DNA from: a virus
Lineage: Duplodnaviria; Caudoviricetes
Virus record (IMG/VR): IMGVR_UViG_3300006169_000166
Coordinates: 4,590 to 68,589 of that record
DNA: 64,000 bases
Strand: one strand, 5' to 3'
Position numbers and translations under genes: made by a program. This document shows, in pieces, positions 5,651-62,624 of this stretch (its first letter is position 1; every line of letters begins with the position of its first letter). The notes under the pieces were generated by a model. That model searched no databases. It saw only the letters and a program-made list of their open reading frames with translations, and was not told the origin of the DNA.

Positions 5651-5815
5651 TTCTGCACTCCCTCTAGTCGGTTTGGCCCCGCCGCTCCGGCGAGTCGGGC
5701 TGTCTTGAACCACATCCGAAACTCTTAATCAACTATTTAGTGAGCACACACGCGTCAGTTGATTAGTCGGATTGGCGGGGTTAGGTTCGGGGCCGACCGG
5801 GAGGAGCGAATCGCA

Positions 5816-6124
5816 ATGGAAGTCACCGAGGCACAGCCGCGATTGGAATGGATGAACACGGAACTTTACCGTGTGCTGTCCGCGACCTTTCCCGAGATTC
5901 GCACAGAGCAGCAGAAGGTGCTCGACGTCGAAAAGCTGGCCGAAGAAATCGGTATGAGCGCGGAGGGCATCTACAAATGGTTCCGCAAGGGCCGCATCCT
6001 CTCGCCCCGCGGTCTCGGCAAGATCGTCGAACTGGCGAACTCACCGGAAAATGTCGCGGCGCTTGAGCGCGCGGGACGAACGCCTCCCACCAAGCAGGAT
6101 TTTGCGCGCCTGATGATCCCCTGA
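5816..6124 (+). CDS. Cro-like HTH regulator
   Basis: VEKLAEEIGMSAEGIYKWFR; divergent from the replication operon. Confidence 0.75.
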   Translation: MEVTEAQPRLEWMNTELYRVLSATFPEIRTEQQKVLDVEKLAEEIGMSAEGIYKWFRKGRILSPRGLGKIVELANSPENVAALERAGRTPPTKQDFARLMIP

Positions 6125-6170
6125 CGCCTTTCGCAACACGAGTGTCCAGGGGTCAAAAGAAAGTGCGTGA

Positions 6171-8666
6171 ATGACTGCGTTCGACGAACAGGTGCTGGCG
6201 ACGATCGAACCGCTCCGCAATGCGGGCTTCGCGCTTCATTGGCTTCACCCGAAAACCAAGCGCCCCATCGGCGACGACTGGTCGACCAAGCCTGTGGCGA
6301 CACTCGACACGCTCCGTCGCCGCCACGCGCCCGGCAACAATCTCGGTGTCCGTCTGGGGGAAGTCAGCAAGCTCACCATCGGGCTTTACCTGCACGTTCT
6401 CGACATCGACATCCGCGACGATTCGCTCGCCGACGAGGCCATCCTCAAGCTGGCGGCGATGTTCCCCGGAATAGACTTCGGCGCATTTCCGGTCGTCCGC
6501 TCCGGCTCGGGCGGCAAGTCCCGCCACGTCTATTTCCTGTGCGAACGCCACTTTCGGTCGAAGGATCTCGCCAAGAGTGCGACCTTCAAGATGGTGTTCG
6601 ACGACAAGCTCGGGCGCGAGGTCAAGAAGCGCGACTGGGAAATCAGCCTGTTCGGCAGCGGGAAGCAGGTCGTGCTTCCGCCGTCGATCCACCCCGACAC
6701 CGGCCTGCCCTACAGCTGGGAGCGCGAGTTTGATCTTGGCATGCTCAGTCTCGGCGTCGGCCCGAGCATTCCGGCCGCTCGGCTCAATGCGTTGGGTGCG
6801 ATGGACTGCGAGGTCGAGGACAGCCTTGAAATCAAGCCGCCGCTCGGCCTGACGCCGGAGGAAGCCGAATCGATCCTCGACGACCTGCCGCTCGAGGAAT
6901 ATTGCGAGGACCGCGATGGCTGGGTGCAGGTCGGCATGGCGCTGCACCACGAGTTCGGCGGCGGCGAAGAGGGTTATGCCCTCTGGAGCGAATTTTCGCA
7001 GCAGTCGGCCAAGTTCGACGACAAGAACCAGCGCACCGTCTGGAACAGCTTCCGCAACAAGCCCAATTCGGTTCGCATGGCGACCCTGCGCTCGGTCGCG
7101 CAGCAGGCGCGCCTGCTCAACGCGTTCGACGAGGTTGATGTCGACGATGACTCAGGCGGCGACGGTTTCGACGACATCATCGGCACTCCGGCCGCCGAGG
7201 GCGACGAGTTCGACGCAATCATCGGCTCGGCGACCGCCCCCGCGCTTGGATGGATGTCGCTGCTCCAGGTCACCAAGGACGGCGAGGGCTGGGCGTCGAA
7301 CCTCCACAACCTCGAACTGATCGTCAAGAACGACCCCAGGCTCGCCGGCATCGCGCAGATCAACGAGTTCACGCAGGAGGTCGTTCAGCGCCTGACGCCG
7401 GGCAAGCAATCTCCGCGCCGCAAGAACCAGGCCAAGCCCGTCAAGCAACTCGAAGGCCGCGTGTGGCACGTCGAGGACGAGCTCAACGGCGAACTCTGGT
7501 CGGAGGATCGCGACTTCGCCATCCGCTCCGTCATCGAGGCACCGCAGACTCAGGGCGGATACGGGATCAAGGTCACCGACCGGGATCTTCGCGCGGCGAT
7601 CGCCCTGTCGGCGCAGGATAGCGCTTTCCACCCGGTGCGCGAATATCTGAACGGGCTGACCTGGGACGAAACGCCCCGGGTCGAGACCCTGTTCATCGAC
7701 TATCTCGGCGCCGAAGCCACCTCCTATTCCCAGAGCATCGCCCGCCTGATGATGCTCGGTGCCGTCACGCGCATCTTCGAGCCGGGCCACAAGTTCGACT
7801 TCGCGGTCATCCTCGAGGGCCTTCAGGGCAAGAGGAAATCCACCTTCATCGAAACGCTCGGGCGACGCTGGTCGGCCGAACTCGACGGCGACTTCCACGA
7901 CCCGAAGATGATGGTCGAGTTGATGCAGGGCGCGTGGATCCTGGAATTGCCGGAGCTGACCGGCTTCCAGCGCTCGGACGTTCGCGCGATCAAGGCTTTC
8001 ATCAGCCGCAAGAAGGACCGCGTGCGCATGGCCTATGCCCGCCGCGCCGGCCAGTACCCGCGGCAGTGCATCTTCATGGGGTCGACCAACGACCGCGAAT
8101 ATCTGAAGGACGACACCGGCGGGCGCCGCTTCTGGCCGATGCCCTGCTACGTCGCCGAGATCGACACCGACCGGCTCGAGGCGAACGTCGACCAGTTGTG
8201 GGCCGAGGCCACGGCGATGTACCGGCAGCTGCGCGCCGAGCAGCCGCGAGGCACCCTGCCGCTATATCTCCGGGACGACGAGGCCAAGGAGATCGCCGCA
8301 CGACTCCAGGAATCCCGCAGGCAGGAAAACTCGGACGACGGGCTTGCCGGCGTCATCGGCGCCTGGCTCGATCAGCCCGTCAACGAGGGTGGGTTTGAGG
8401 AAGTCACGGAGGACGGGCAGCCGACCTACCGCGACCGCGTCTGCCTGCCGGAAATCTGGGTCGATTGCCTCCGCGGCGACGTCAAGAATTATACGGCGAC
8501 CCAGGCGCAGGCGCTCGGCCGAGCGATGGCGAAGGGCGTCATTGCCGCCGACTGGCAGCCGCAGGGCACGCATCGCCACCCGATCTACGGCAAGCAGCGC
8601 TGCTACCGCCGCGTGACGCCGCTGGAGACGCCTGCCGGGCCGGACGAGTTCGCGGTTATCGGGTGA
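6171..8666 (+). CDS. Primase-helicase (bifunctional primase/polymerase, PriCT-2, VirE-like ATPase)
   Basis: LHWLHPKTKRP, DID, WVQVGMALHHE, Walker A GLQGKRKST, GSTN, GGRRFWP. Confidence 0.9.
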   Translation: MTAFDEQVLATIEPLRNAGFALHWLHPKTKRPIGDDWSTKPVATLDTLRRRHAPGNNLGVRLGEVSKLTIGLYLHVLDIDIRDDSLADEAILKLAAMFPGIDFGAFPVVRSGSGGKSRHVYFLCERHFRSKDLAKSATFKMVFDDKLGREVKKRDWEISLFGSGKQVVLPPSIHPDTGLPYSWEREFDLGMLSLGVGPSIPAARLNALGAMDCEVEDSLEIKPPLGLTPEEAESILDDLPLEEYCEDRDGWVQVGMALHHEFGGGEEGYALWSEFSQQSAKFDDKNQRTVWNSFRNKPNSVRMATLRSVAQQARLLNAFDEVDVDDDSGGDGFDDIIGTPAAEGDEFDAIIGSATAPALGWMSLLQVTKDGEGWASNLHNLELIVKNDPRLAGIAQINEFTQEVVQRLTPGKQSPRRKNQAKPVKQLEGRVWHVEDELNGELWSEDRDFAIRSVIEAPQTQGGYGIKVTDRDLRAAIALSAQDSAFHPVREYLNGLTWDETPRVETLFIDYLGAEATSYSQSIARLMMLGAVTRIFEPGHKFDFAVILEGLQGKRKSTFIETLGRRWSAELDGDFHDPKMMVELMQGAWILELPELTGFQRSDVRAIKAFISRKKDRVRMAYARRAGQYPRQCIFMGSTNDREYLKDDTGGRRFWPMPCYVAEIDTDRLEANVDQLWAEATAMYRQLRAEQPRGTLPLYLRDDEAKEIAARLQESRRQENSDDGLAGVIGAWLDQPVNEGGFEEVTEDGQPTYRDRVCLPEIWVDCLRGDVKNYTATQAQALGRAMAKGVIAADWQPQGTHRHPIYGKQRCYRRVTPLETPAGPDEFAVIG

Positions 8667-9193: not shown

Positions 9194-10160
9194 GTGCCTG
9201 ACGGGCCGGATTGCTAATCCGCTCAGAGTCGCGCCGTACCCGTCAGGCTAGTCGAACCTGGTCAACCGCTCGCTACCCACCCCTGCTTTCCTGACCGCGT
9301 TCCGGCGGCGAGTCCGCAGGGCCTAAGCCTCGTCCGTTGTCGCTCGACTAAACTATGGTCGGAATCGCGGGCTACAACGGGCCTAGCCCTCACCCCATCC
9401 CGACTAGCGCGTGCACACGCCAGCACCGTCTTTCCGGCTGCCAGGCCTGATTTCGCTCTATGCCCGCGTCCGATGAAGCGGTCGGAACCCGCATCCGGCG
9501 TAGGCCCCGGCCCCGATGGGCACGCAAAAACGTTGCACCGAAACTGTGTTTGGAAGGACGGCGTCCGGAGGTCGGGTTCCCCAAGGTTGCGACCCTTAGA
9601 CCTACTGTCGACGCGTCGCCGCCCATTCAAACACAGCCGACAGAGTTTTAGGCCATACAGCCGATTGGGCCGGACAAGTTTTCACGCCTTCTCCGAGGCG
9701 GCTGACGGTATAGCGGATTCTTACCGCTTCTCCCGGCCTTTCAGCCTTCGCGTGTTGCTTTCACACCATTTCACCGTCAGCGGCGGCGGGAGTTGTCCGG
9801 ACGAATGCAGCTCCCGCGGTCTGCATAGATTGACTGGCCGGACACAGCCGCCACCTTGTCCCCGTGGGGTGGCGTAAGCCCGTGTCGCCGCGAAGCGTGG
9901 GGAGGCTCACCTCTTAAACTCATTCGAGGGCTTTCACCTCGCGCCCGATCAGCGCCCGGGACGCTTTCACGGTCTGCGGTGCAACCCTTGCGGGTGTCGT
10001 CCGGGAAGCCCTTCCGCTGCTACAACCCAGACCGAGTCCGGTGGATCTCCGGACGCCCATTTGTGCGGCTCCCCTGTGGCCTCAAGGAGCAGCGCGGAGT
10101 CCCCGTTGCCGGGTGTACCGTGTCGACTAATCTCTCTCCGAGGAGGGAGGGGTGCCATGA
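9190..10160 (-). ncRNA. Candidate large structured ncRNA (~950 nt), family unassigned
   Basis: Dense nested helices, GNRA and UGAAAG loops, G-U pairs and crossing helices on the minus strand; no credible ORF; promoter-like TTGACT at 10195-10200. Confidence 0.7.
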
Positions 10161-10363
10161 CCTACGAATCACCTACTCCGACTCACGCGACTGAGTCAAC
10201 TGTAAAGTGATTGCGCGATTTCGAATGGGTTCGCGCAGCAATTCCTTCCGAACCCAAACCGGACTCGAATTACGGCTGCCGATCGCTACAAATTCCGGAG
10301 TTTTAAAATAGGTTTTGATTCAGAACGCATCCGCTCGGTTTCGCCGCGATCCGGACGCCGGCT

Positions 10364-10678
10364 GGTAACAGGCCCCTCGGCTGTTACCGACCTGTTACCA
10401 GGGCCTGTTACCACAGATTCCGCAGAAATCCGCCGCAAAACGGGATGGTAACAGGTGGAACAGGCATTTTCCTTATAGAGAATGTCGTTTCAGGGGATTC
10501 TGCGCACTTTTCGGCTCGACCAGTGCCTGACCGCAGGGTTCTAAACCTGTAAAACGACAAACTTCTAAGGAAAAGCCTGTTCCACCTGTTACCAGTGACC
10601 TTATCCTTATGATTTCAAACGGAAAAAGCGGTAACAGGTGCCGGTAACAGGCCGGTAACAGGTAAAGGGCCTGTTACC
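10364..10678. repeat. Dyad-symmetric cluster of GGTAACAG(G)/(C)CTGTTACC iterons; candidate replication origin
   Basis: 10 copies plus 2 GGAACAGG variants; ~46-bp imperfect inverted repeat at 10447-10493 / 10547-10593. Confidence 0.75.
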
Positions 10679-10717
10679 AGTCGGCTATGCAGTAACTTGG
10701 CTGATCGGAGGCCCATC

Positions 10718-10993
10718 GTCCCAGGCCGTCCCATAGCGTCCCATGCACTATGTCCTAAGCGAATCTCCGAAAACTCTCGATTTCCGCGGCTCAGCGCCCC
10801 CCGCCCGCCTGCCCAGACGCAGGAAGGACCCGTAAACCAATGACTTAGGCGCTGCAGTTGCCGGCGAGGCTGAGCTGTCGAGATGCCGCGCCGCGCGTCC
10901 CATGTAGTCTCATGCCGTCCCATAGCGTCCCGGATGCACGAAAGCGGCGAGGCGGCCAGTCCCATGCAGTCTCATGCCGTCCCATAGCGTCCG
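10718..10993 (+). repeat. 10-bp-phased GTC(C/T)CAT direct repeats in three blocks
   Basis: Starts at 10718/10728/10738, 10897/10907/10917/10927 and 10959/10969/10979/10989. Confidence 0.8.
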
Positions 10994-11118
10994 CACGCGC
11001 TGCTCGACCTGCCAAGGTTGTTCAAGGCACGCGCTGCTCGACCGGCCAGCTATCCAGTTGCCGGCGCTGCCAAGCCGGCTCGAGGCGGGCAAAACTACTC
11101 CCTCGAAACGAGTCCCGG

Positions 11119-11157
11119 TCAACTTTTAGTTGACTTGCTGCCCCGAATCGCTAGTGT
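11119..11157 (+). promoter_or_regulatory. Early rightward sigma70-type promoter with overlapping palindromic operator
   Basis: TTGACT-N16-TAGTGT; TCAA-N7-TTGA overlaps the -35 box. Confidence 0.65.
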
Positions 11158-11185
11158 CGAATCAACAGATACGGAGTGATTCGAA

Positions 11186-11296
11186 ATGCAGATTGTCCGC
11201 ACCGCCACCGCCACCGCCCCGAGCACCAGCCAGGCTCAGCGCGACTGGTACGCCCGCTTTCAGATTGCCGCCGCGCTCGCCGCAGCTGGCCGCTGA
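11186..11296 (+). CDS. Small early peptide (36 aa)
   Basis: GGAG RBS; MQIVRTATATAP...AGR read manually; first ORF after the promoter. Confidence 0.45.
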   Translation: MQIVRTATATAPSTSQAQRDWYARFQIAAALAAAGR

Positions 11297-11326
11297 TCCG
11301 AAGTCACTAAACAGGGGACCGACAAG

Positions 11327-13097: not shown

Positions 13098-13475
13098 ATG
13101 GTCGACCTGGGCCTCGGCGTCCCCGCCACGCTTGGACGCGGCAACTATCGCGATAACAAGACGGTCGTGCTTGCCGACGTTTGTCGGGAGTTAGAAATCG
13201 TCAACGCAAGCGATGCGGCGAGCAGGCTGGATGACGACGAAAAGGATAACATCGGCATTACCGATGCTATCGGTCGGAAGCGTCCGACAGCGCCCCTCAA
13301 AGGCCTGGTGGCACGACGCCGCCGCCGCGACATCACGCAGGCTGAGGCCGGCAGCTGGATCGGCATGAGCAAGCAACAGATGAGCATGGTCGAATCCGGC
13401 CGGGCCCGCCTCGATCTGAAGCGCGGGCGGATCCTCGCCGAGCGCCTGGGCTGCACGATGGAGGAATTGCTGTGA
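13098..13475 (+). CDS. Bro-N fragment fused to an XRE HTH
   Basis: LADVCRELEIVNASDAASRLDDDEK (Bro-N-like) then ITQAEAGSWIGMSKQQMSMVESG (XRE). Confidence 0.65.
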   Translation: MVDLGLGVPATLGRGNYRDNKTVVLADVCRELEIVNASDAASRLDDDEKDNIGITDAIGRKRPTAPLKGLVARRRRRDITQAEAGSWIGMSKQQMSMVESGRARLDLKRGRILAERLGCTMEELL

Positions 13476-13621: not shown

Positions 13622-13666
13622 TCAACTAAGAGTTGACCCGATGCGAGCGAATCACTAAAGACATGA
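13622..13666 (+). promoter_or_regulatory. Promoter with two palindromic sites
   Basis: TCAA-N7-TTGA over TTGACC (-35); N17 then TAAAGA inside TCAC-N7-ATGA. Confidence 0.6.
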
Positions 13667-13805
13667 GTCGCGATATCGGCCGGGATCGGTAGGGCGCGGA
13701 ACGCTCCAGCCTCGAACGGGGGCGGAGAGAACCGAACAGGGGAAGTAGGGTGCCGCGTCCTTCCCGTCCCGGTCGGAACGTGAGTCACTAAACAGGGGAA
13801 TTGAG

Positions 13806-15316: not shown

Positions 15317-15342
15317 CCGAATCACTAAACAGGGGAATTGAA

Positions 15343-17484: not shown

Positions 17485-17749
17485 GCGCCGGAGAAATCGG
17501 CAGGCCGGAGAAATCGGGGAAATCGAAGGCCGAGGACCGCCGGCAGGCGGGGTAACAGGGGGAAACCCCGCGCCGCCGGCGGTCAGGTTCGCAGCACGGG
17601 GGCATGTGCTGCTTTCGGCGACTCGGACAATCGGCGATTCGACCCGCAGAGTCAACCGTTGATATGGTTACTCACGTTTCGGTTGACTCCTCCGCGTGAT
17701 TGCGACAGGTTCCGCTCCACTGATTCGGCAAGAACAGGGAGTGAGAGAA

Positions 17750-19427: not shown

Positions 19428-19456
19428 ATCACTAAAGTCGTGATTCGGAGAATCTG

Positions 19457-21323: not shown

Positions 21324-21425
21324 CGCCGGAACGTATAGGGAACATTGCCGGAGAAATCAGCATTTTTGAATCTGCGGCGTTGCGCGCGTTATGACTCCCT
21401 AAAGACGTGATCGCGGGAGCATCCA

Positions 21426-23464: not shown

Positions 23465-23553
23465 TCACCTTTCGCGTGACTTTTCGCTTGCGCGACTCGA
23501 CCCACTCAACTTACAAGTGATTCGACACACAGCGAATCGGAGGGGTCGGGGAA

Positions 23554-24134: not shown

Positions 24135-24277
24135 CCATCGCCCTGCTGCTGATCTGCGCTCTCGCCTTCGCAACCATCGGAGTGGTCGCTTCGGTCAGAT
24201 ACGACAGCGCATGGTGCCTCATTCCGATGCTCATGGGTCTCCTCTGCGCGTTGCAGGCAGGCAGGTTGATCGGCTGA
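24131..24277 (+). CDS. Small membrane protein
   Basis: Two hydrophobic segments; coupled start/stop. Confidence 0.6.
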   Translation: MTIALLLICALAFATIGVVASVRYDSAWCLIPMLMGLLCALQAGRLIG

Positions 24278-25820: not shown

Positions 25821-26749
25821 CCGACCTCACCATCGGGCACGGAACTGGCCTCGGCCATGCCGGTCGCCCCGAAATCGACTTCAGCGCCGTCGACCGCAAT
25901 GCACCCGGCCACCGCGGCTACGTCGAGCGGCTTCAGCGCGAAGGCTGCCCGCTCAACGACATCCCTGCATCCGGCCCGCCCTACCTGATCGGCCTGTGCT
26001 CGCGGGCGATGCAGTCGGGGAAATCGACGCTCGCCAACCATCTCGCCGAGCGGCACGGCTTCACCGCGCTGAAGTTCGCCGGTCCTCTGAAGGCGATGAC
26101 CCGGGCGTTGCTGCTCCAGCAGGGATTCTTCCCGTCCACCGTCGAACGGATGGTCGAGGGCGACCTCAAGGAGAGTGAACTCTTACCGTCGCTTTCGGTC
26201 TCACATGGGACTCTCGACGCGATGACCGACGCGCTGCTCGAGGCGACCGGCCTCGACCCGATGGAGATCGGCAACGAGCGCCTGAATTGCCACGTTCCGG
26301 CGCTGCACGCCTCACCACGCCAGATCTACATCATGCTGCGCGACACCTGGGCGCCGCTCGTGACCAGGCCTCTGGTCACACCGCGCTGGATCATGCAGTC
26401 GCTCGGCACCGAGTTCGGCCGCGAATGCCTTCACCCCAACGTCTGGGTCGACATCACATGCACGCGCGCCGCAGGCCTGCTTGCGGCCGGGAAATCGGTG
26501 GTGATCGACGACATGCGCTACGCGAACGAGATGGCCGGCGTGCGGGACACCGGCGGTTTCGCCGTCCGCGTCATCCGGCCCCAGGCGATCGTCACCAACA
26601 GCCACAGCAGCGAGGGCGAGCTGGACGAGGCTCCGATGACCTCGATCACCAACGGCTTCGCATCGGTCGACAGTTTCCACGGATATATCGACCGCGATGT
26701 CGTCCCGAGGCTTGACGAATGGCGTAAATTCGACTCACTAAACAGGTGA
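25817..26749 (+). CDS. Deoxynucleoside monophosphate kinase
   Basis: SGKST P-loop, [32 protein letters not shown]. Confidence 0.88.
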
Positions 26750-27404: not shown

Positions 27405-27452
27405 CTTTGAGTCACTTTTTTAGTGTGTTGCTAATCAGAGGAGTGAGTTCCA

Positions 27453-35141: not shown

Positions 35142-35209
35142 TCGCCCGCTCTCCGAATCACTAATTAAGTGATTGTTACCACGAAGAACCGTTCAGGGCA
35201 AAAGTCCGG

Positions 35210-36454: not shown

Positions 36455-36489
36455 GTTCGTTCCTCTATCACCTGTTTAGTGAATTGCCC

Positions 36490-39237: not shown

Positions 39238-39275
39238 CTCGCCTATCCTCGTATCACGAGTTTAGTGACTCTTCG

Positions 39276-47336: not shown

Positions 47337-47339
47337 GGC

Positions 47340-48122: not shown

Positions 48123-48167
48123 CGGTCAACCTCCATCGGGTTCAATCACTAATAACGTGACTCTGTA

Positions 48168-49682: not shown

Positions 49683-49684
49683 GG

Positions 49685-50134: not shown

Positions 50135-50223
50135 TTTGCACCTCTCGACTTGTGGGACAGCCCGGCCAGTCCATCACCTGTTTAGTGACTCGCTGGCCGG
50201 GTGTTCCGGTTGAAGCTGTGGGC

Positions 50224-51318: not shown

Positions 51319-51340
51319 CGTAATGCTACCTTTCTAGCCG

Positions 51341-51796
51341 TTAAGCGGCGGGCGAACCCGACGCCAGTCGGGCGCGGAAGATGAGATTGGGGTTGCCGAC
51401 GACCGATCCGGCCTTCTTCGCAACCGTGTCGAACGAAGCGTCCCACACCAGCGGGCTGTCGGCGCCGCAGTTGTAGTTGCCGGTGAGGACGACCTCGCCG
51501 TGGATCGTCGCATTGGCCGCGCCGCTGGTCGCCGCATGGAGGAGGACGCCAATCGGCTTGATCGCCAGGTCGGGGTCCGCGTTATATTCGGCGAGGACGA
51601 GGTTGTCGTCCGCGTCGAGACCGACGACACTGAACTGCGCGAGGACGATGCTGTCCGCGAGCAGGATGCGGACCGGCGCCGACATGCCCGGCTCGCTGCC
51701 GGCCAGAAGGTTGGTCTGGGTCAGCGTGTCGAGCGCCTCGAACGAAGGAAGGCCGCGCTTGTCGGCGTTCAGGTAGGAAACGGGGATGTCCGTCAT
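51341..51796 (-). CDS. Head decoration protein
   Basis: Between protease and capsid genes. Confidence 0.8.
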   Translation of the reverse strand: MTDIPVSYLNADKRGLPSFEALDTLTQTNLLAGSEPGMSAPVRILLADSIVLAQFSVVGLDADDNLVLAEYNADPDLAIKPIGVLLHAATSGAANATIHGEVVLTGNYNCGADSPLVWDASFDTVAKKAGSVVGNPNLIFRARLASGSPAA

Positions 51797-51808
51797 TTCA
51801 GCTGCTCC

Positions 51809-53113: not shown

Positions 53114-54831
53114 GCCGCCTTCTTCTCCTGCTTGTCCTGCTTGTCCTCGTCGCCCGCGTCGTTCTGAGCGCCGGCTGCCTGGGCGGTTTTCGATGTGAAG
53201 CTGATGCCGAGTTGCTCGCGCAGCGCCTTTTCCCGCTTCAACTGACGGAACACCTTGCGGAAATCCTTGCCGAGCCGGGCCAGTTCGTCCTCGTGCGTCG
53301 ACAGGCCGGATTCGATGCGGGCGATCGCCGCCTGCGTTTCCTTGAGCTCGTCGATCTGGCCGCGAGACGCGCCGATCCAGTCGCAGCGCGACAGCGCATC
53401 GAACGCGAGGTTCAGCCGCCCGTTGGTGTAGAGCAGGCCCGCCTTCTTCTTGGGGAAGGTGGTCAGCAGGTTCTTGTTGACCGCTTCCTCGAGCCACAGG
53501 CGGAAGATGATCGTCGCGAACCGGTCGGCGATCAGTTTCTTGCGCGCCTGCATGAACTTCCAGGTCTCGGTCATCGCCGCGCGCGCCGAGCTGTAGTTGG
53601 TGCTGGTGTAATCGCGGCTCAGCTGCTCGTAGGAAACGCCGAGGGTGGCCGCGATGTAGCGCAGGATCGACTGCTCGAACGCGGTGCCGAGCGAGGTGTT
53701 CGCGCCCGGTGAAATGAGGTCGAGCTTGGTGCCCGGGTAAAGGTGCGGAATCCGCACGCCGTCGATGGTCAGGCCCTTCGACTTGCCCGCATATTGGGCG
53801 ATGGCGCCCATGTAGCCGGTCGCGAAATTGGTGACGACCTTCTCGACCTGCTCGGGCGCCATTTCGCCGCCGCCGAGTTGCTGGAACAGGGTGTCGGTCG
53901 GCATGTCCGAGGTGATCGCCGCCGCGTAGAGCGACTGCGTGACCATGTGCTGGAGGCTGATGTCGCGCAGGGAATGGCCCATGCGCATTTCCTTGAGCGC
54001 GGCAGCCATTTCCGGGATTCCGCGGGTCTGCTCCGGACGCACCTGCTCCTTGAGGTGGATGACCTGCAGCCGGCCCCACGGCTTGCGGATCGGGACTTCC
54101 TTCCACTCGGGAAGCCCGACCAGCCAGCCCACGTCGCTCGGGTGCTGGGTCCGGATCTGGTAGGAGATGGGCGCGCCTCGCCGGTTCCTGCGGACGCCGG
54201 CCCTGACGCTCTGGTCGAGGTTGGCGAACGGCGCGGTCGACAGGCGGTCGAGGTCGACCATCTGGATGCAAGTGCTGAAGTCGCTGGCATTCTCGACGTC
54301 CCACTCGGCAGTCGACAGCACTTCGCCCGCCGCCAGGTGGATTCCCACCGCCATCCGCACGAGCTGGGTGAGATTGTTGGTGCGCGCCGCGTCGACCCAG
54401 TTGTCCGGGGACTCGGCGAACAGTTCGAACAGTTCCTCGGCTTCCGCCTGGAACTCCTCTTCCCAGACATCGTCCTCCTTGCCGAACAGGCGCGCCGTCG
54501 CCGGCCGCACGTTCAGCAGGAACTGCGCGCCGACGATATTGTCCTTGTGCAGGTTCGCGCCGCCCTGAATGTAGGCGTCGTTGCGCAGCATGTCGCGCGT
54601 GCGCAGGTCGATGGTCTGCTTGTCGGGAAGCAGGTCGGCGTCCGCCGAGCGCATCACCGGACCCCATAGCGCGAAGCCCTGGTCGTAGCGGTCGGCGCCC
54701 TCGAACGCGCCCATCGCTTTATCGCCGCCCGCGCTCGGGAGGGGTGCGACCGAGGCGGGCGGCGCTGCCGCGGGCAGGGCGGTGGCGGGGGTGCCGATCA
54801 GCGCGTCGATGTCGAACTGCGGCTCGCTCAC
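53110..54831 (-). CDS. Portal protein (lambda gpB family)
   Basis: RDMLRNDAY, RPEQTRG, NYSSARA, IDELKE. Confidence 0.93.
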   Translation of the reverse strand: MSEPQFDIDALIGTPATALPAAAPPASVAPLPSAGGDKAMGAFEGADRYDQGFALWGPVMRSADADLLPDKQTIDLRTRDMLRNDAYIQGGANLHKDNIVGAQFLLNVRPATARLFGKEDDVWEEEFQAEAEELFELFAESPDNWVDAARTNNLTQLVRMAVGIHLAAGEVLSTAEWDVENASDFSTCIQMVDLDRLSTAPFANLDQSVRAGVRRNRRGAPISYQIRTQHPSDVGWLVGLPEWKEVPIRKPWGRLQVIHLKEQVRPEQTRGIPEMAAALKEMRMGHSLRDISLQHMVTQSLYAAAITSDMPTDTLFQQLGGGEMAPEQVEKVVTNFATGYMGAIAQYAGKSKGLTIDGVRIPHLYPGTKLDLISPGANTSLGTAFEQSILRYIAATLGVSYEQLSRDYTSTNYSSARAAMTETWKFMQARKKLIADRFATIIFRLWLEEAVNKNLLTTFPKKKAGLLYTNGRLNLAFDALSRCDWIGASRGQIDELKETQAAIARIESGLSTHEDELARLGKDFRKVFRQLKREKALREQLGISFTSKTAQAAGAQNDAGDEDKQDKQEKKAA

Positions 54832-55037: not shown

Positions 55038-55116
55038 CCCTCGCCCGGTTCCCGTGAGTGGGTTCACAAGGATATGTCACGAGTCGGATTGCGTAATCAA
55101 TAATCGCGTGACTCGG

Positions 55117-57309
55117 TTATCCGAGCCGTTCGGCGAGATCCTCGATGCTGAGCGTGCCCGACGCCGGTTCGTCGCCCATCGGCTCCGCCGCGCTGTCCCC
55201 GGGACGCACGATCATGTCGTTCCTGTCCCAGTCGGGGTTCGCCCACGGCGGCGGCCTGGTCCAGTCCATATGCTCGAGCCTGACCTGCTGCGTCGAGCAG
55301 ATGCCGACGCAATAAGCGAGAAGGTCGAAGGCTTCGTTCTTCCTGCGGCTCGGGTTCTCCCAGCCGCGGGTCGTCCGGACTTCGGTCGTCAGCTGCGAGT
55401 AGAGCCAGCCGGTGTCGATGACCTGGTTGTCCGGGGCATGCCAGATCGGGAAATGCACCTGCCCGCCCGGGTCGGTGCGGCCGAGCATGTTCGACACGCG
55501 GTCCTTGACCTTGTTCGAATTGACCAGCCACACCGGGACGTCGCCGCGTGCGATCGCGAACTTGCCCTTCTGCCCGCTGTCCGGGAAGGTGCGGTGCATC
55601 TCCGGCGCGGTCGCGCTCGGCGCGCCCTTCACCAGATGGAAGCGCAGGTGCGAACCGTCGCCGCGCTTCTTCAGCCGCCGCCAGAACTCGTAGGCGTTGG
55701 CCGTCACGCTGACCTTCGGCCCGTCCTCGTCGCGCGCCTGTTTCTTCGCGTTCGCCGACGCGGCTGCGCCGCCGGAGTCGCAGGCGACGATCTTGACCCG
55801 CATCTCCCGGCCCGACCCGTCGGCGAGCGGATAGGTGCGCAGCAGCGCCTCGTCGACCAGGCAGTCCCAGTCCTCGGGATAGGAGGCGGGGTCGATCAAT
55901 TTGCGCTCGCCGTCCTCGTCCATGCGGCGCGACTTGCGGATCTTCCACATGTCGACGTGCCAGATGTCGGCGGCAGTCGGGACGATGCCGTCCTGCAACT
56001 GCTCCGGAGTGACGCCCGGACCGATGCCGTAGGTATGGCAGACGAACGACGGCCGCCCGCCCGCCTGGACGTCGATGGTGGTGACGAGGAAACCGACCCC
56101 CGGTGGAACTTCGCCCTTGTCGGAGTAAGGCTGCGCGCGCTCGCGCAATTCTTCGGGCAGCCGTCCGGCTTCCGATGCCTTCGGCGTGTAGGGCAGGCCC
56201 TGGTCGACGTTGACCGTCACCTTCAGCGCTTCCTCGCTGCCGGTGCGCTCATATTCGTCCATCGCGTTCAGATATTTGAGCACCAGTTCGGGCCAGCTGA
56301 TGAAGGCGGCTGCCACGCCCTTCAGCCAGAAACTCGCAATATCCGAACGCCGGGCGATCCCGGACACCGAGCCGTCGGCCTCCCAGGCCTGCCCTTCCTT
56401 GATCCACCTGCCGCCCTGATTGAGCTCGTGCTTCATCTCGGGGTCAATCGGAAAGCCGCAGTGCGGGCATTCCATGACCACCTGGGCCGCCGCGTTCATC
56501 GGATCAGGAAGCTGAGGCCAGCGCAACAGCTTGAAATCGCCCTCGAACGGGTCGTTGCATTGCGGGCAGCGCCAATACCAGCGTCGCCGGTCGCCGCGGT
56601 TGTAGAGGGCGAGGATGCCGGTCGTCGGCGGCGCTTCGTGCGGACTCGTCGGCATCCACTTGGGATTAGTGACTTCGCGGCCCGGCGAACCCTCGCACGC
56701 AGTCATCCCGAAACGGCGATACGTCTGCGCACGCTTGCGGGTAAGGTCGAACGGGTCGCCTTCCTTGTCGACATTGTCGGCCATGCGGTCGCGGTCGAAC
56801 AGCCACAGCTTGCGGATCGTCTTGCCCGAAAGTTCGGTGATGGTCGGCCATTTGATGAGCAGACGCATGCCCGACAGGAAGCGCTTGTCGTGGACGTTGT
56901 CGTTCTGCCGCCCGGGAACCAGCCGGTTGCGAACGTCCTCCGAGTAGCGGAGCATCCGGGCGAGATCGCCTTGCGACCAGTCGCGCGCGGTGTTCTGCGT
57001 CATGTTGACGAACATCATGTCGGCGGGATCGCAGATCGTGGTGTAGGCCAGCCAGTTGAGGGCCATCACCGATTTGCCGGAGCGGGCTGGCCCCGCGAAG
57101 ATTTCTCCGGTGAAATCCAGGCTCTCCAGTTCGTTCATCGGCTCGATCAGATAGGGCGTCCGCTCGAGCGAGAACGGCCCGACATGCGTGCCGGGGTTGT
57201 TGACATAATGGTAGCGCTCGGCGGCCTGGCTGACCGTCAGCCGTTCGGGCGGGCGCACTGCCTCGGCCGATGCGACCATCATCTCCTCGATGGTGTGGAA
57301 CACGCGCAT
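55117..57309 (-). CDS. Terminase large subunit (gpA family)
   Basis: GPARSGKS, DRDR, CPQC/CPHC, TIDVQ, NEAFDL. Confidence 0.93.
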   Translation of the reverse strand: MRVFHTIEEMMVASAEAVRPPERLTVSQAAERYHYVNNPGTHVGPFSLERTPYLIEPMNELESLDFTGEIFAGPARSGKSVMALNWLAYTTICDPADMMFVNMTQNTARDWSQGDLARMLRYSEDVRNRLVPGRQNDNVHDKRFLSGMRLLIKWPTITELSGKTIRKLWLFDRDRMADNVDKEGDPFDLTRKRAQTYRRFGMTACEGSPGREVTNPKWMPTSPHEAPPTTGILALYNRGDRRRWYWRCPQCNDPFEGDFKLLRWPQLPDPMNAAAQVVMECPHCGFPIDPEMKHELNQGGRWIKEGQAWEADGSVSGIARRSDIASFWLKGVAAAFISWPELVLKYLNAMDEYERTGSEEALKVTVNVDQGLPYTPKASEAGRLPEELRERAQPYSDKGEVPPGVGFLVTTIDVQAGGRPSFVCHTYGIGPGVTPEQLQDGIVPTAADIWHVDMWKIRKSRRMDEDGERKLIDPASYPEDWDCLVDEALLRTYPLADGSGREMRVKIVACDSGGAAASANAKKQARDEDGPKVSVTANAYEFWRRLKKRGDGSHLRFHLVKGAPSATAPEMHRTFPDSGQKGKFAIARGDVPVWLVNSNKVKDRVSNMLGRTDPGGQVHFPIWHAPDNQVIDTGWLYSQLTTEVRTTRGWENPSRRKNEAFDLLAYCVGICSTQQVRLEHMDWTRPPPWANPDWDRNDMIVRPGDSAAEPMGDEPASGTLSIEDLAERLG

Positions 57310-58064
57310 CAGGCGGCCAGCAACCAGAGGACGGACAGTCTTGCTGCCGCCTGGTTGATAAAGCCGTCGATTCGGTCGAGGCTGTTCATATCCTCTATTC
57401 GTTCGCGCATGATCGCCGCCCGCATGCGCTTGCTTTTCGGTTGATAGGTGCCTCGCCAAGCGCTGTCGGAGATGATGTTCATAGCGATGTTCGTGCTGTC
57501 ACCGGAGGCGAGAGGGAGCTGCGTGTAGATGGCCGGGTTCAGCATGCGCAGGCCATGCACCTTGCAAATCGGTCGCCCGCGCTCATCGCAGATCGAACGA
57601 ATTGCCTCTTTGGCTCGAGGTAGGAATTTGCTCGGCGTGCTGACATCGTACTCCCCGCTGGAACCGATGCAGACGCGAGGATAGGCTTCAGCTAGGCGCC
57701 GAAAGCGCTCAAGGCTCTCGTTGATGTGCCATACCGGCGCACCGACGTGTCGGTCGAAAGGGAAATCGGTTACGAGCGCGTCATTCTCGGCTTCAGAGCC
57801 GTCGATGACATCTGGGATAACCGCGAAATCAAAGCCTGGATGCCGATGCCATTCCTGAACGAACGCATAGAAACCGGGCCAATCAACGCGGGTGCCAGCT
57901 TTCCAGAAACTGAATGCGCCGTTGTCCAAGAAAAAGGACTGACACAGGGCGGCGGCCAATCCGACCTGTTCTGGACGCGCGTAGGACACGCAGGCGTGTC
58001 CGCCCTTCCAAGCTGCGATTGCCGCCTCTTCCGGCCAAATAGGTCCGCCGTGATAGTGAATCAT
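57309..58064 (-). CDS. TGT/DpdA-like putative base-exchange (transglycosylase-fold) protein
   Basis: FLDNGAFS, PDVI, PVWH, GSS, HGLRM, SGDST mirror TGT/DpdA motif spacing; fold is inferred. Confidence 0.55.
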   Translation of the reverse strand: MIHYHGGPIWPEEAAIAAWKGGHACVSYARPEQVGLAAALCQSFFLDNGAFSFWKAGTRVDWPGFYAFVQEWHRHPGFDFAVIPDVIDGSEAENDALVTDFPFDRHVGAPVWHINESLERFRRLAEAYPRVCIGSSGEYDVSTPSKFLPRAKEAIRSICDERGRPICKVHGLRMLNPAIYTQLPLASGDSTNIAMNIISDSAWRGTYQPKSKRMRAAIMRERIEDMNSLDRIDGFINQAAARLSVLWLLAA

Positions 58065-58315
58065 TACGTCGCTTTCCGCGGCCTGCCGCGTGGACGCAGG
58101 AGGCCCTGCGCGCGCAACTCTTCTCGGCGACGCATCTTCCGCAAAGTCCCCCGGACGCCGTCCGGAGTGCCGCCGATTTGCCGCGCAATCTGCTTGAACG
58201 ACAACCCTTCCGCTCGAAGGCTTTCAGCCCTCTGACGGCGCTCGGCGAGAATGGCCGCGCCTTCCGCAGTCCACCATTGAAGCTGCTGAAACTCGGTTAG
58301 GTTGCGAGCAATCAC
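58064..58315 (-). CDS. HTH protein with AT-hook-like tail
   Basis: GLSFKQIARQIGGTPDGVR; RPRGRPRK. Confidence 0.7.
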   Translation of the reverse strand: MIARNLTEFQQLQWWTAEGAAILAERRQRAESLRAEGLSFKQIARQIGGTPDGVRGTLRKMRRREELRAQGLLRPRGRPRKAT

Positions 58316-59645: not shown

Positions 59646-61878
59646 TCAGCCGATCAGCGCGCGAAACGGCTCGAGGTTGAGCCACCACTGGATGCGCGCG
59701 CCGACCCAGAGCATCACATGCGTCGCCATGCTGTTGCCGCACTGCTTGTAGCGCGGGCCGTCTGCCGCCATCAGCCACCAGCCGCCGTTCGGGTCCGGCT
59801 CCCACATGTCGTCGGGGCGCAATGCCGTGACTTTCTTGGCAGGGTAGAACCGCACAGGGATGCGGGTCCAGTTGTCGGGGAATCCCTGAAGGCGCTCGCA
59901 CTCGGGGGGCATGAGCCTGCGAACGGCCATGTTGGGCGCGGTGAACCAGCCGTCGACGGTTCCCCCGCCGTTGGATCTCGAGGAAATAATCGCAGGTGCA
60001 TGCCCTCCTGCCGCGAGCGGGTGGCACGGGTCACCGGGTTGCGGGTTGCTGTAATTGTCGGGGGACGGCAGTTGCGTCGTGTCGAAGGGAGTGACTTCGT
60101 GGCATACCGCTTGCGGCACCGTCCGCGCCTCTAACGTGTAAGCGGTGCCGTCACCGCGTACACCCATTCCGTCCGGCCCGGCATTCGGATTCTCGCACAC
60201 CGCGCGCTCCTGAATCGCGTAGGCGACGGCGCTCGGCCCGCTGACATCCAGTGTCGGCGCGAGATGCTCGTCGACCCCGATGCCGTTAGCGCCGGTCTGC
60301 GCGGTGCGGACGCTGTAGGCGACTGCCGGCATCACCCCGCCGTTGGCGTGACTGTCGCTATGCCCGCCCGAACGCAGGGTCGGCGACAGGTCGTCGGACG
60401 CGTCCTGCCCGTAGTCCTTCGCAGTGGAGGCGACGCATGGCGCTCCGCCGGAAGCACGGTCGCTGTTGCCCGTGAGCGTTCCGGAAATGTGGTTATCGAC
60501 GGCGACGTTCGACCCGCGCCCCTGGAATCCGATCAAATGACTGAACGGATCGGTTCCGGTCGTCAGGGCATCGACGCGATCTCCGGTCTCCCACGCCCCG
60601 TTGTTGCCGGAGGTTCGGTAGGCGACCGGCACAATCGGTTGCCCGCGCCCAGTGCCGTCCTCACTGGCGTCGAAACCTTCGGCTTTCAGGCAATGCGTCA
60701 CGGGTTCCGTGACGCATTGAGGTTCCACGAACTCTAATTTCTCTTCCTCGCCGCAGCGCGGACACTCATAGGGCGCAAGGCCGCCGATGTCGCGGCCGTG
60801 GAGGTCGAGGAACGGGCCTTCGCCGCATTCGAGGCAGCGGAGAAGCGGTGCGGCTTCCACTTCGTGCGACACGATCAGACTGTCCGCCGTGTCGACGTCA
60901 GTTCCGGGCGGGCGGTCACCGCCGGTCGCATTGCCGCCGGCGCGCAACGTGGGACTGACCTGGACGGGAGCTTCATCGAACCCGCCTCCGAGCATAGGGA
61001 TTAACGTCTCCGTCTCGGCATCCCGACGGCCCATCGCCCCCGCGTTGAGACACATCGAAATTTCGGTATGCCCCCCCCGGAACCAGTGCAGAAGTCACCC
61101 GATTAGTGAGTCGAACTCCTGTTGCAGCGGGCACGACGTGCCCGCTGCAAGCACCGTCGGTTCCGAGGAAGCCACCGCCGTCAGTGCGCGCATCAAGAGT
61201 TCCGGCAACGTCTTGCCCCTTTTCTCGGCTCGGCGGAGAATCCCGGCGCACGCCGTCGAACTCAAGTAGAATCTCTCCGGGATCGAACCCGTCACGAGCA
61301 CTTGCGACAAGGGTGATACGCTTGCGGCGTTGGGAAAGGCCGAAATATTGGGCATCAAGGACCCGCCACGCGATTGCCCTTTGGGGTCCAAGCACAACAC
61401 CAGCGTCCGGCCATCTTTTCCCTGACGGCTCGAGCGGCTCATCTTCTCCGGCAAGCGCTGCAAGGAAATTGCCGAACGGATTGTCCTTGTGGCTGAGGAT
61501 TCCCGGTACGTTTTCCCAGACGATGACACATTCGGGCTTTCCGACCGCTCGGCGAGCGCTGTCGATAGCATCGGCAATCTCCACGAAACTGAGGGTGAGC
61601 TGTCCGCGCGGGTCGGCCAATCCCTGGCGACGGCCCGCGACTGAGAAGGATTGGCAGGGCGTACCGCCAACAAGCACGTCAGGCGCTTCGACCACGCCTG
61701 CTTCAATGAGCGGCGCGATCTGCGTCATATCACCAAGGTTGGGGACGTTCGGCAAACGATAGGCGAGCACCGCTGACGCGGCCGCATCCACCTCTGAAAC
61801 CCAGGCGGTTTCCCAGCCTAACGGATGCCATGCGACAGACGCGCTTTCGATGCCGCTGCAAACACTGCCAAAGCGCAT
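59646..61878 (-). pseudogene. dcm: C5-cytosine methyltransferase split into two frames at a G8 tract
   Basis: Motifs I/IV/VI/VIII (SVCSGI, GGTPCQ, WENV, QRRKR) in 60973-61878; IX/X (RRLMPPECERLQGFP, YKQCGNS) in 59646-61055; 2233 nt, and G8 to G7 at 61071-61078 gives one ORF. Confidence 0.82.
61095..61706 (-). CDS. Alternative-frame ORF nested in dcm (M.EcoHK31I beta-like)
   Basis: LSQVLVTGSIPERFYLSSTACAGILRRAEKRGKTLP; start uncertain. Confidence 0.55.
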   Translation of the reverse strand: MKQAWSKRLTCLLAVRPANPSQSRAVARDWPTRADSSPSVSWRLPMLSTALAERSESPNVSSSGKTYRESSATRTIRSAISLQRLPEKMSRSSRQGKDGRTLVLCLDPKGQSRGGSLMPNISAFPNAASVSPLSQVLVTGSIPERFYLSSTACAGILRRAEKRGKTLPELLMRALTAVASSEPTVLAAGTSCPLQQEFDSLIG

Positions 61879-62285
61879 CAGCGGCACTCCATGCCGAGAT
61901 ATGCCGCTGCCGCAGCGCGCCAAGGTAGATCGTCCCAACCTCCGAGGCGCAGATTGCACCGCCTACACAGGAGACCTCGCACCTTACCGGTGTTGTGGCA
62001 GTGATCGACGTGCAACTGCTCCGGTTCAACACCACAAATCTTGCAGCATCCCATCTGCTCTTGCCCAAGGCGCTGGTACTCAGCCTCGGTAAGCCCATAG
62101 CGCCCCATCAGGTGCCAACGGCGCTTCTGCTCCGGAGAATAAGATCGAGGTTTCACGTTACGCGTGATTCGAACACGCCTATTGGCGCAAGACGCGCAGT
62201 AGGAATGGCGGCCTTGTCGTCCGGTTGGCTGACTATGGAAGTCGGCAAGCGGCTTAGTCTGCTGGCACGTCGAGCAGCGCTTCAT
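61878..62285 (-). CDS. Recombination endonuclease VII-family HNH nuclease
   Basis: CSTC, CASC, CKICG, LHVDHCHNTGKVRGLLCRRCN. Confidence 0.9.
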   Translation of the reverse strand: MKRCSTCQQTKPLADFHSQPTGRQGRHSYCASCANRRVRITRNVKPRSYSPEQKRRWHLMGRYGLTEAEYQRLGQEQMGCCKICGVEPEQLHVDHCHNTGKVRGLLCRRCNLRLGGWDDLPWRAAAAAYLGMECR

Positions 62286-62545
62286 CCGATCAACCCCTCG
62301 AGTTCGGGGTCGAGACCGGGTTGAAGCACCGGCGCACCTTCAACCTCCTCAGCCTGCCAGTGGCGCACCTCGGTGGACAGCCAGAAGCGGCGGCCCGGGT
62401 TGTTGCGATAGGAACGAGACCGCGGGAATTTCCCGAGGCTCTGCTGCCGGTAGATTTCCGTCCGCGAGAGGCCGACCTTCTGGATCACCGTTTTCAGCGG
62501 CCAGAACTCGACATCGTCAGCGGCCAGTTGCTCTGCTGTGCTCAT
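62282..62545 (-). CDS. AlpA-family excisionase/regulator
   Basis: VIQKVGLSRTEIYR....GKFP, WLSTEV..W. Confidence 0.88.
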   Translation of the reverse strand: MSTAEQLAADDVEFWPLKTVIQKVGLSRTEIYRQQSLGKFPRSRSYRNNPGRRFWLSTEVRHWQAEEVEGAPVLQPGLDPELEGLIG

Positions 62546-62577
62546 CACCCCGCCCGTCCAACTCAACCGTTGCGTGT

Positions 62578-62624
62578 GTTCTAATCACGCGAAAGTTGAT
62601 TTGCAAGCGGTGTTTCGATATTCA
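62578..62624. promoter_or_regulatory. Overlapping divergent promoters with palindromic operator
   Basis: Minus: TTGCAA-N17-TAGAAC with TCAC-N7-TTGA (62585-62599) in the spacer; plus: TTGATT-N17-TATTCA. Confidence 0.55.

Follow-up and report, generated by a model that had tools for sequence, protein, structure and literature searches.

What does a short inverted repeat do when it recurs between the genes of a provirus, in early and late operons alike, and which protein reads it? The question is posed by a 64,000-nucleotide stretch of a tailed-phage genome (the window), which comprises bases 4590-68589 of the 68,589-bp virus record IMGVR_UViG_3300006169_000166, classified in IMG/VR as a provirus, 100% complete; that record is referred to here as G000 and its relatives as G001 onward. 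The repeat, TCA[AC]-N7-[GT]TGA (TCAMNNNNNNNKTGA), has 23 matches in the window versus 2.14 +/- 1.44 expected and a maximum of 6 in 100 dinucleotide-preserving shuffles. We consider it likely that a phage-encoded dimeric helix-turn-helix (HTH) repressor uses the sites as operators on double-stranded DNA, and that the network they form controls nearly every transcription unit. The most likely reader is predicted to be a CI-like protein of 243 amino acids (aa), here called Rep, a choice that we hold to be somewhat better than even.

A previous inspection of the letters alone (the sequence-only reading) had listed 17 sites by eye, with a rough estimate of one chance hit. All 17 coordinates are exact matches to the pattern, and the estimate is close to that obtained from the shuffles. 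The six degenerate copies named in the same reading are present as described, each with one mismatch, and the listed sites do lie between genes or at gene ends, as do 18 of the 23 matches overall. One of these 18, the intergenic match at 62153 (TCACGTTACGCGTGA), was absent from the earlier list and is probably real. The five matches within coding sequence (28908, 29318, 29759, 59461 and 60698) have GC-rich spacers and look like chance occurrences, their number being equal to the chance expectation. Non-coding DNA makes up 13% of the window and, under a strict mask, holds 15 of the 23 sites (binomial p = 8e-9). Requiring W at positions 5 and 11 makes the pattern too strict, and sites are undercounted. 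When all 4-mer inverted repeats with spacings of 0-13 were counted without bias toward this motif, TCAC-N7 or TCAA-N7 topped the intergenic list in six of seven genomes. With the arms fixed and the spacing varied from N0 to N13, N7 alone is enriched (intergenic fractions of 16/24, 15/19, 12/17, 18/22 and 14/22), the others remaining at background.

Relatives were found through capsid and primase anchors; 18 related genomes were assembled, with genes called by third-position GC. Sixteen of the 18 carry 11-23 intergenic sites each, and in these 16 genomes pooled, non-coding DNA amounts to 15% of the sequence and holds 261 of the 365 sites (binomial p = 3e-130). Hosts given in the records of relatives include Rhodobacter, Sphingomonas, Sphingopyxis and Asticcacaulis. 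In the isolated phage RcCWillis the network takes the form TTCACGTTAGATGTGAA; in Achromobacter phage AchV4, 14 sites are present versus 2.0 expected; and several relatives hold perfect 7-1-7 palindromes such as TCACTATAATAGTGA. The motif is absent from distant prophages (capsid identity <=42%) of Methylobacterium, Mesorhizobium, Bosea and Enterovirga. The pattern is confirmed as real, highly non-random and conserved. Among the 18 relatives the network is lacking in G002 and G009. The former has a repeat of its own, TTTCATGTTTTA (plus strand: TAAAACATGAAA). About nine cassettes at record positions 41552-54306, early and promoter-like, contain it, and they may represent a regulatory system that has taken the place of the network. 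In the latter, no motif of any kind was found to repeat.

The comparison of phage with host was made on a relative because no host chromosome is attached to this record. The complete 4.0-Mb genome of Sphingomonas hankookensis has 166 matches, 31 of which lie in a 65-kb related prophage (241-306 kb). The other 135, spread over 3.9 Mb, correspond to the shuffle density (2.1 per 64 kb), and among those listed almost every one has a GC-rich spacer. The prophage therefore has about 14 times the motif density of the remaining chromosome, and the form with an AT-rich spacer is virtually confined to it. Motif density in phage and host had been set beforehand as a check on the idea of a phage network, and the host proved not to be similar, the S. 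hankookensis chromosome lying at chance level. With a host regulon excluded, the reader of the motif should therefore be phage-encoded.

The positions nearest the center of the site differ from genome to genome. Half-site positions 4-7 read TCACTAT in G003 and G006p, TCACGT in G005, TCAACAT/C in G010 and G013, TCAACTT in G018, and TCACGTT/TCACATC in RcCWillis. Distances between neighboring sites cluster at 20-23, 28-30, 38-44, 49-50 and 55-60 bp, and these steps of about 10 bp are helical phasing (Rayleigh R = 0.52 at a 10-bp period, p ~7e-4, some of the pairs being orthologous and hence not independent). These features bear on whether the motif acts as DNA or as RNA. The alternative named in the sequence-only reading was an RNA hairpin with a 7-nt loop. 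Such a hairpin would serve as a processing site, an attenuator, or a translational operator that hides the Shine-Dalgarno (SD) arm GGUGA behind UCAC. Folding is indeed possible for about two thirds of the window copies (-4 to -9 kcal/mol), an SD sequence often coincides with the right arm, and the copy at 50174 does lie within a larger stem past the capsid gene, in the loop of a 9-bp stem (CCCGGCCAG...CTGGCCGGG). Foldability is, however, a trivial consequence of palindromy and carries no weight. The innermost pair of the supposed stem, positions 4 and 12, is non-complementary in 105 of the 261 sites (40%), as A/G or C/T combinations for which wobble is impossible, and the SD-overlapping GGGGA copies are unable to fold. 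Divergent promoter regions also bear sites, as do stretches ahead of start points, and phasing of neighbors is a property of DNA. The hairpin is disfavored on these grounds, and we regard it as highly improbable. Overlap of the sites with CcrM GANTC sequences was rejected as a family feature, its enrichment being limited to G000 and G005.

Read as operators, the sites occupy four kinds of position relative to transcription and translation signals, as judged from loose alphaproteobacterial-style -35/-10 matches by eye together with conservation between G000 and G001: 1) the right arm GTTGAC forms a -35-like box with a TAnnnT-like hexamer 16-18 nt later, as at 11119, 13622, 55097 and most sites of G004; 2) the site fills a 17-nt promoter spacer in the arrangement TTGnnn/1 nt/site/1 nt/TAnnnn, as at 62585, RcCWillis gp24, G005 1268 and G003 1345/4834; 3) the site begins just past a -10-like box, at the start point, as at the Rep genes of G000, G001 and G003; or 4) the site lies 3-15 nt before a start codon within an operon and its downstream arm is the ribosome-binding site, for example at 26735. 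Family-wide, TAnnnT is about 5-fold enriched 17 nt past TTGA arms. The site at 5729 recurs with the same sequence in the same place in G001, and that intergenic region bears sites in G003, G005 and G006p too; by eye its arm AGTTGA gives the lower-strand -35-like box TTGATT. The equivalent of 11119 in G001 (45312) reads TTGACT-N16-TACCGT. The junctions in the late operon to which the earlier reading had drawn attention are occupied as it described, at TerL/gpW-like (55097), capsid (50174), major tail protein (48146), tail genes (39254 and 36468) and endolysin (35158). The post-capsid site directly follows a terminator-like hairpin and is kept in nearly all relatives. One-mismatch copies TCACTAAAnnGGGGA stand 6-8 nt before an ATG three times in the window and seven times in G001.

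The spacer had also been said often to start with TAAA in the direction of transcription, apart from 35158, 48146 and 55097. Of 12 asymmetric copies, 11 have the TCACTAA half pointing that way (p = 0.006), and the exceptions named earlier are borne out. This bias probably arises largely because the downstream arm doubles as an SD sequence (GGTGA/GGGGA) or a -35 box (TTGAC). Placement that varies relative to the promoter boxes (-35, spacer, -10, +1) fits repression and not activation, a point that bears on a further explanation, namely that the motif is itself an element of positive control: a promoter for a phage polymerase or sigma factor, or an activator site. The idea draws on GA(N)TCACTAAA-N2-3-GGGAG, which precedes many genes in G000 and G001 and which we take to be close to the T3 promoter core, on TATAAT inside the spacer of some consensus sites (G003, G006p), and on the extracytoplasmic function (ECF) sigma factor encoded in the window. 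Of 15 network genomes, however, just 5 have the ECF sigma factor; the sites also show two-fold symmetry, and several stand only 3-4 nt from a start codon. No match to single-subunit RNA polymerase (PF00940) was found in G000 and five relatives, the control genomes also being without a match, and every open reading frame (ORF) of at least 550 aa in the window is otherwise assigned. The 831-aa ORF 6171-8666 was rejected as a T7-like RNA polymerase, being a primase/VapE protein. The T3/T7 look-alikes, of the form GA(N)TCACTAAA-N2-3-GGG(G)A(G) and 6-8 nt before ATG, occur at window positions 11304-11326, 13785-13805 and 15322-15342 and in seven copies in G001. As they are one base off the full palindrome (GTGA to GGGA), they are better read as putative operators whose downstream arm is bent toward an SD sequence. 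Positive control seems to us very unlikely.

To which protein would a set of operators of this kind belong? Presence/absence profiling over the 18 genomes returned no family found in all network genomes and missing from both network-less ones. Three small families are universal (all 17 complete genomes): that of window ORF 5075-5650, for which an ESM Atlas search was uninformative, the small HTH protein of 5816-6124, and CI-like Rep of about 240 aa. In G000, rep lies on the minus strand at G000:C1:1921-2652, 1.9 kb left of the window. In 12 of 13 network genomes (G012 and G014 left out), one or two exact sites lie in the ~110 bp upstream of rep, and the thirteenth, G011, has a one-mismatch copy there; AchV4 also has a site upstream of rep. 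The G000 upstream region reads TTGACA-N17-CTATCT, 2 nt, TCAACTCGCAGTTGA, with the operator at G000 2684-2698. The gene adjoins the integrase in RcCWillis and is near the integrase in AchV4. As a separate observation, a GGDEF-EAL gene on the minus strand at the extreme end of the provirus record (G000:C1:4-1635) adjoins Rep, and is either host flank or a phage-borne cyclic-di-GMP gene.

An AlphaFold model of Rep (mean predicted local distance difference test score, pLDDT, 81) has a five-helix lambda-type HTH, a disordered linker and a C-terminal PD-(D/E)XK-fold domain. In structure comparisons of this model, residues 26-103 match the P22 c2/operator complex with Z 9.6 and a root-mean-square deviation of 1.8 A over 65 residues; other matches of the HTH are ImmR (Z 9.4), lambda cI (Z 9.0), 434 (Z 8.4) and TP901-1 CI. 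For the C-terminal domain, which probably makes dimers or tetramers, the matches are I-Ssp6803I (Z 9.8) and Hjc (Z 8.8). Pfam returned HTH_3 alone on Rep, sub-threshold at E = 5e-4, and no Peptidase_S24 match. Residue 50, with which HTH helix 2 starts, is R in all 15 of 15 network genomes, and helix 3 in all of them fits the pattern [ST]-x-E-[ST]-[VIA]-[RK]-[KR]-[WY]. R50Q is confined to the network-less G002 and G009, which add K72A (G002) or S69G (G009) in the recognition helix; this covariation of Rep residues with loss of the network may be taken as supportive but weak. In isolated phages the Rep homologue is annotated merely as "HTH DNA binding protein", and another small protein is labeled immunity repressor in an RcD phage.

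Several observations weigh against Rep as a repressor acting at promoters. The Rep tree places G002 and G009 together as sisters (support 0.88), so the covariation amounts to one evolutionary event; their Reps are also the most divergent overall, and both genomes still encode Rep despite being network-less. The variable Rep residue 67 does not line up neatly with the half-site classes, since G003 (R) and G006p (A) share TCACTAT. The protein of 5816-6124 is a second universal HTH protein equally well placed beside an operator. A textbook -10 stands at the right distance in only about 8% of TTGA-arm views, and most sites have no assignable promoter. The overlap with sigma70-like promoters proposed from sequence holds in part: -35/-10 pairs can be read by eye at some sites, whereas a scanner for strict consensus sigma70 promoters placed a promoter at no site and gave no excess of promoters or terminators.

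The protein of 5816-6124 might be a Cro-like reader, alone or sharing operators with Rep, that switches early promoters off or on in lytic growth, much as lambda Cro shares operators with CI. It is present in all 17 complete relatives, always adjoining the primase gene and the operator-bearing divergent region, and has a weak HTH_3/HTH_17 signature; in network-less G002 its turn is lengthened by two inserted residues and K is replaced by Q in the putative recognition helix. Yet the copy in network-less G009 has a typical helix (AAVYRWLKKNRL), those of G003 and G006p differ in the helix while the two genomes share one half-site consensus, and no dimerization domain is evident. A further point against it is its conserved Y-K/R-W motif, which in HTH domains of this type usually belongs to the hydrophobic core and does not contact bases. 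We think it rather improbable as the reader; what probability remains beyond Rep and this protein falls to some other reader. For neither Rep nor this protein could a clean residue-to-base code be read. Of the HTH candidates named in the sequence-only reading, four were assessed, 58064-58315 being left aside, and none of them is the best reader: conservation with the network is lacking for 13098-13475, for 30222-30761 and for AlpA, and 5816-6124 stays as second candidate.

Other DNA-binding proteins of the window were considered as readers and rejected. The ParB-like protein (19457-20281) and the ECF sigma factor (20278-20757) are not conserved in network-bearing relatives. The CI-like HTH protein of 30222-30704 occurs in 4 of 18 genomes, with its recognition helix nearly unchanged in network-less G002. 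The AlpA-like protein is missing from four network genomes. GapR is a non-specific nucleoid protein that is also found in network-less genomes.

With Rep as the favored reader, a mechanism can be outlined. Each half-site would consist of TCA[AC] and three phage-specific inner bases, with the two halves one helical turn apart. Rep would occupy its own promoter and about 24 further sites, so that almost every prophage transcription unit would bear at least one operator. Initiation would be blocked at sites that cover a start point, a -35-like box or the spacer of a promoter, and a site at a junction within an operon might act as a roadblock or cover an unrecognised promoter. Pairs of sites 20-60 bp apart in ~10-bp steps could support cooperative binding on one helix face, and the downstream arm doubling as a ribosome-binding site or -35 box would account for the orientation bias in this phage. 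Binding, the identity of the binder and the effect on transcription are what we infer here.

The closest published parallel is found in the cluster A mycobacteriophages (L5, Bxb1, TipsytheTRex), whose repressor sites, upward of 20 in number, lie at promoters and between genes and are oriented with transcription (PMC9283540, PMC6550527). The L5 sites are asymmetric 13-mers bound by a monomer with an HTH and a "Stoperator" domain, and their orientation is essential (PMC9283540). The present phage is similar in having more than 20 genome-wide sites (18 exact and 6 one-mismatch) across early and late operons, at promoters and in short intergenic spaces; the sites are likewise phage-specific, vary in sequence among related phages and, in this phage though not in its palindromic relatives, tend to point with transcription. 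In contrast to L5, they are 15-bp inverted repeats, perfect in some relatives and suited to a dimer, and the candidate repressor combines a lambda-type HTH with a nuclease fold. Because of these palindromes in place of asymmetric 13-mers, and the different architecture of the candidate repressor, the system is not a member of the L5 family. Fold searches with Rep listed lambda-type HTH proteins and PD-(D/E)XK nucleases and not the TipsytheTRex repressor, no direct comparison with gp71 having been made. The L5-like scheme for the whole genome put forward in the sequence-only reading is well supported by the genome comparisons as a phage-specific, conserved network of repressor sites (16 of 18 relatives, chance level in the host), and not as regards the form of the sites, which are palindromes suited to a dimer.

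Whether the sites within operons are true stoperators is a narrower matter. On that account the repressor, once bound, would halt RNA polymerase during elongation in the manner of L5 gp71, and this roadblock, more than control of initiation, would be the main function of the network. About half of the window sites lie at junctions within long operons without a readable -35 (36468, 39254, 50174, 11304, 13785, 15322), 4-40 nt before start codons and pointing with transcription in 11 of 12 cases, a placement and orientation in common with L5 sites (PMC9283540). The relatives, however, have perfect, orientation-free palindromes, orientation here can be explained by the arm being an SD sequence or a -35 box, and many sites flank or fill promoter-like elements. 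At the many sites that overlap such elements, blocking of initiation would suffice, and a predominantly roadblocking network appears unlikely.

The preferred reading, of operators for a dimeric repressor, has its nearest structural counterpart in the lambdoid CI/c2 proteins (lambda, P22, 434), with which Rep shares the N-terminal five-helix fold. Lambdoid operators are also two-fold symmetric, 14-18 bp long and placed over promoter elements (here read by eye), including the promoter of the repressor itself, with signs of cooperative pairs. Unlike the lambdoid arrangement of six sites in two clusters, the present phage has about 24 dispersed sites spanning 5729-62599 and beyond the window, structural operons included, and Rep carries a C-terminal PD-(D/E)XK fold without an S24 peptidase domain. 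Lambda operator arms are closer together than the TCAC-N7-GTGA arms here. Other dispersed-operator systems are those of phage P1 C1, the Streptomyces phiC31 repressor c with its inverted repeats, epsilon15, and KorB on RK2. In each, one regulator has at least a dozen palindromic or near-palindromic sites over a mobile element, many at promoters, with families and motifs unrelated to these. We know of no dispersed-operator system described for Casjensviridae-like phages of Alpha- or Betaproteobacteria. The closest isolated relatives, the RcD phages RcCWillis and RcMcDreamy, are temperate, ~68 kb long and of the same gene order (PMC8601537, PMC9753621). The papers on them report unexplained repeats at the right genome end only, and no description of this motif or of Rep was found in that literature (PMC8601537, PMC9753621). 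The dispersed layout, known from other phages, is not known to have been described for this phage family.

Further repeats accompany the network in some genomes. In RcCWillis a second palindrome, TAGTCAAC-N-GTTGA, occurs five times within 58979-65300; its arm contains a TTGAC-type -35-like box. Four of these copies (59595, 61727, 62440 and 65257) head an early cassette of ~70 bp, in which they are followed by ~10 nt, TTCAC-N7-GTGAA and then GAAACCGAATCG..AAGGA. The window has one similar case, the palindrome at 17652-17662. Everted arms, GTGA-N3-TCAC, are enriched intergenically in G012 and G014 (10/14 in each) and may represent a second site type or closely abutting sites.

Table 1. Motif sites and genes of the provirus, in window coordinates (by-eye promoter readings as in the text).
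Feature	Position	Strand	Sequence	Context
Exact site	5729..5743		TCAACTATTTAGTGA	between divergent early operons (5075-5650 side leftward; 5816-6124 HTH and primase rightward)
Exact site	10196..10210		TCAACTGTAAAGTGA	immediately 3' of stop of ORF 9979-10194
Exact site	11119..11133		TCAACTTTTAGTTGA	perfect 6+6 palindrome; right arm = TTGACT, TAGTGT 16 nt further (promoter-like, by eye)
One-mismatch copy (position 13)	11304..11318	+	TCACTAAACAGGGGA	8 nt before ATG at 11327; right arm = Shine-Dalgarno
Exact site	13622..13636		TCAACTAAGAGTTGA	perfect 6+6 palindrome; right arm = TTGACC; TAAAGA 17 nt further, within next copy
One-mismatch copy	13652..13666	+	TCACTAAAGACATGA	30 bp past site 13622
One-mismatch copy (position 13)	13785..13799	+	TCACTAAACAGGGGA	6 nt before ATG at 13806
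One-mismatch copy (position 13)	15322..15336	+	TCACTAAACAGGGGA	6 nt before ATG at 15343
Exact site	17672..17686		TCACGTTTCGGTTGA	second palindrome TCAACCGTTGA ahead of site, 17652-17662
Exact site	19429..19443	+	TCACTAAAGTCGTGA	flanks extend to GAATCAC...GTGATTC; 13 nt before ATG of ParB-like gene; TTGCCT-N17-TAAAGT readable across
One-mismatch copy	21396..21410	+	TCCCTAAAGACGTGA	upstream of ORF 21426-21773
Exact site	23465..23479		TCACCTTTCGCGTGA	first of pair, 41-bp spacing
Exact site	23506..23520		TCAACTTACAAGTGA	second of pair; 33 nt before ATG at 23554
Exact site	26735..26749	+	TCACTAAACAGGTGA	right arm AGGTGA = Shine-Dalgarno, 4 nt before ATG at 26754 (DnaA-domain-IV-like)
One-mismatch copy	27412..27426		TCACTTTTTTAGTGT	upstream of GapR homologue 27453-27722
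Exact site	35158..35172		TCACTAATTAAGTGA	16 nt upstream of endolysin gene 34479-35141 (minus)
Exact site	36468..36482	-	TCACTAAACAGGTGA on minus strand	between tail tip gene and tail-fibre gene 35210-36454
Exact site	39254..39268	-	TCACTAAACTCGTGA on minus strand	upstream of tail assembly chaperone-like ORF 39001-39237
Exact site	48146..48160		TCACTAATAACGTGA	23 nt upstream of major tail protein gene 47340-48122 (minus)
Exact site	50174..50188	-	TCACTAAACAGGTGA on minus strand	just past capsid gene 50224-51318 (minus)
Exact site	55097..55111			between TerL and gpW-like adaptor; arm gives TTGATT-N18-CATATC; G001 keeps TTGATT-N17-CATATA
Exact site	61095..61109	-	TCACTAATCGGGTGA on minus strand	upstream of methyltransferase gene
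Exact site	62153..62167		TCACGTTACGCGTGA	intergenic
Exact site	62585..62599			fills 17-nt spacer of promoter-like TTGCAA-N17-TAGAAC; upstream of AlpA-like gene 62282-62545 (minus)
Family A DNA polymerase	116-2140	-		leftward replication operon
gp2.5-like single-stranded DNA-binding protein	2718-3440	-		leftward replication operon
DUF2800	3409-4605	-		leftward replication operon
ORF	5075-5650			leftward replication operon side of divergent region
Small HTH protein, 102 aa	5816..6124	+		first gene of rightward early operon (early arm ~24 kb, with many small ORFs); weak HTH_3/HTH_17 matches
Primase/VapE	6171-8666	+		rightward early arm
ParB-like	19457-20281			early arm
ECF sigma factor	20278-20757			early arm
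Deoxynucleoside monophosphate kinase; methyltransferases				early arm
Host-cell-cycle look-alikes	26754-30167			early arm; the next four rows
DnaA-domain-IV-like	26754-27404			early arm
GapR homologue	27453-27722			early arm
Methyltransferase	29128-29742			early arm
OmpR-type winged helix	29739-30167			early arm
Endolysin	34479-35141	-		long late arm
Tape measure	42605-46627	-		late arm
Major tail protein	47340-48122	-		late arm
Tail terminator; tail genes		-		late arm
Capsid	50224-51318	-		late arm
gpA-type TerL	55117-57459	-		late arm
Methyltransferase; TerS; gpW-like adaptor; portal; S49 protease		-		late arm
AlpA-like	62282-62545	-		late arm
Tyrosine integrase	62774-64000			

Among isolated phages the nearest is Rhodobacter phage RcCWillis of the RcD cluster (Casjensviridae), whose capsid is 58% identical and whose Rep homologue is ~40% identical; a megablast search with 48 kb of the window gave no match among isolated phages. 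Four other features of the window are recorded here (Table 1). A cluster at 26754-30167 resembles host cell-cycle DNA-binding proteins, and an ECF sigma factor is encoded at 20278-20757. The 1.1 kb at 10195-11326 is of lower GC, is without a convincing ORF, and is bounded by the operators at 10196 and 11119. The family of 24277-24822, whose C-terminal end is acidic-L-I-G, occurs in 9 of 15 network genomes and in neither network-less one. The sole operator-free stretch, 30222-31547, contains a divergent pair made up of the CI-like HTH gene 30222-30704 (minus) and a 96-aa ORF at 30973-31263 (plus), which may be a second, independent switch.

A broader proposal, which we put forward tentatively and would not yet favor, is that these elements constitute a novel silencing system shared by temperate Casjensviridae-like phages of Alpha- and Betaproteobacteria. 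A CI-like repressor with a recruited PD-(D/E)XK oligomerization domain would act on 15-30 phased palindromes whose arms double as -35 or SD sequences, shutting every unit including the late operons, partly by roadblock, and co-evolution of operator and repressor would set immunity groups. If so, one repressor and many operators would provide a simple, testable regulatory logic for a whole family of temperate phages, which covers the tractable RcD phages of Rhodobacter capsulatus as well as prophages of Sphingomonas, Sphingopyxis, Asticcacaulis and Achromobacter. The sequence signature would mark prophage boundaries, and half-site variants would predict immunity groups. The family would offer a natural series of repressors and operators with shifting specificity in which to study the co-evolution of HTH recognition, and possibly orthogonal repressor/operator parts for Alphaproteobacteria. 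Beside the stoperator system of the mycobacteriophages, it would stand as a second, structurally unrelated example.

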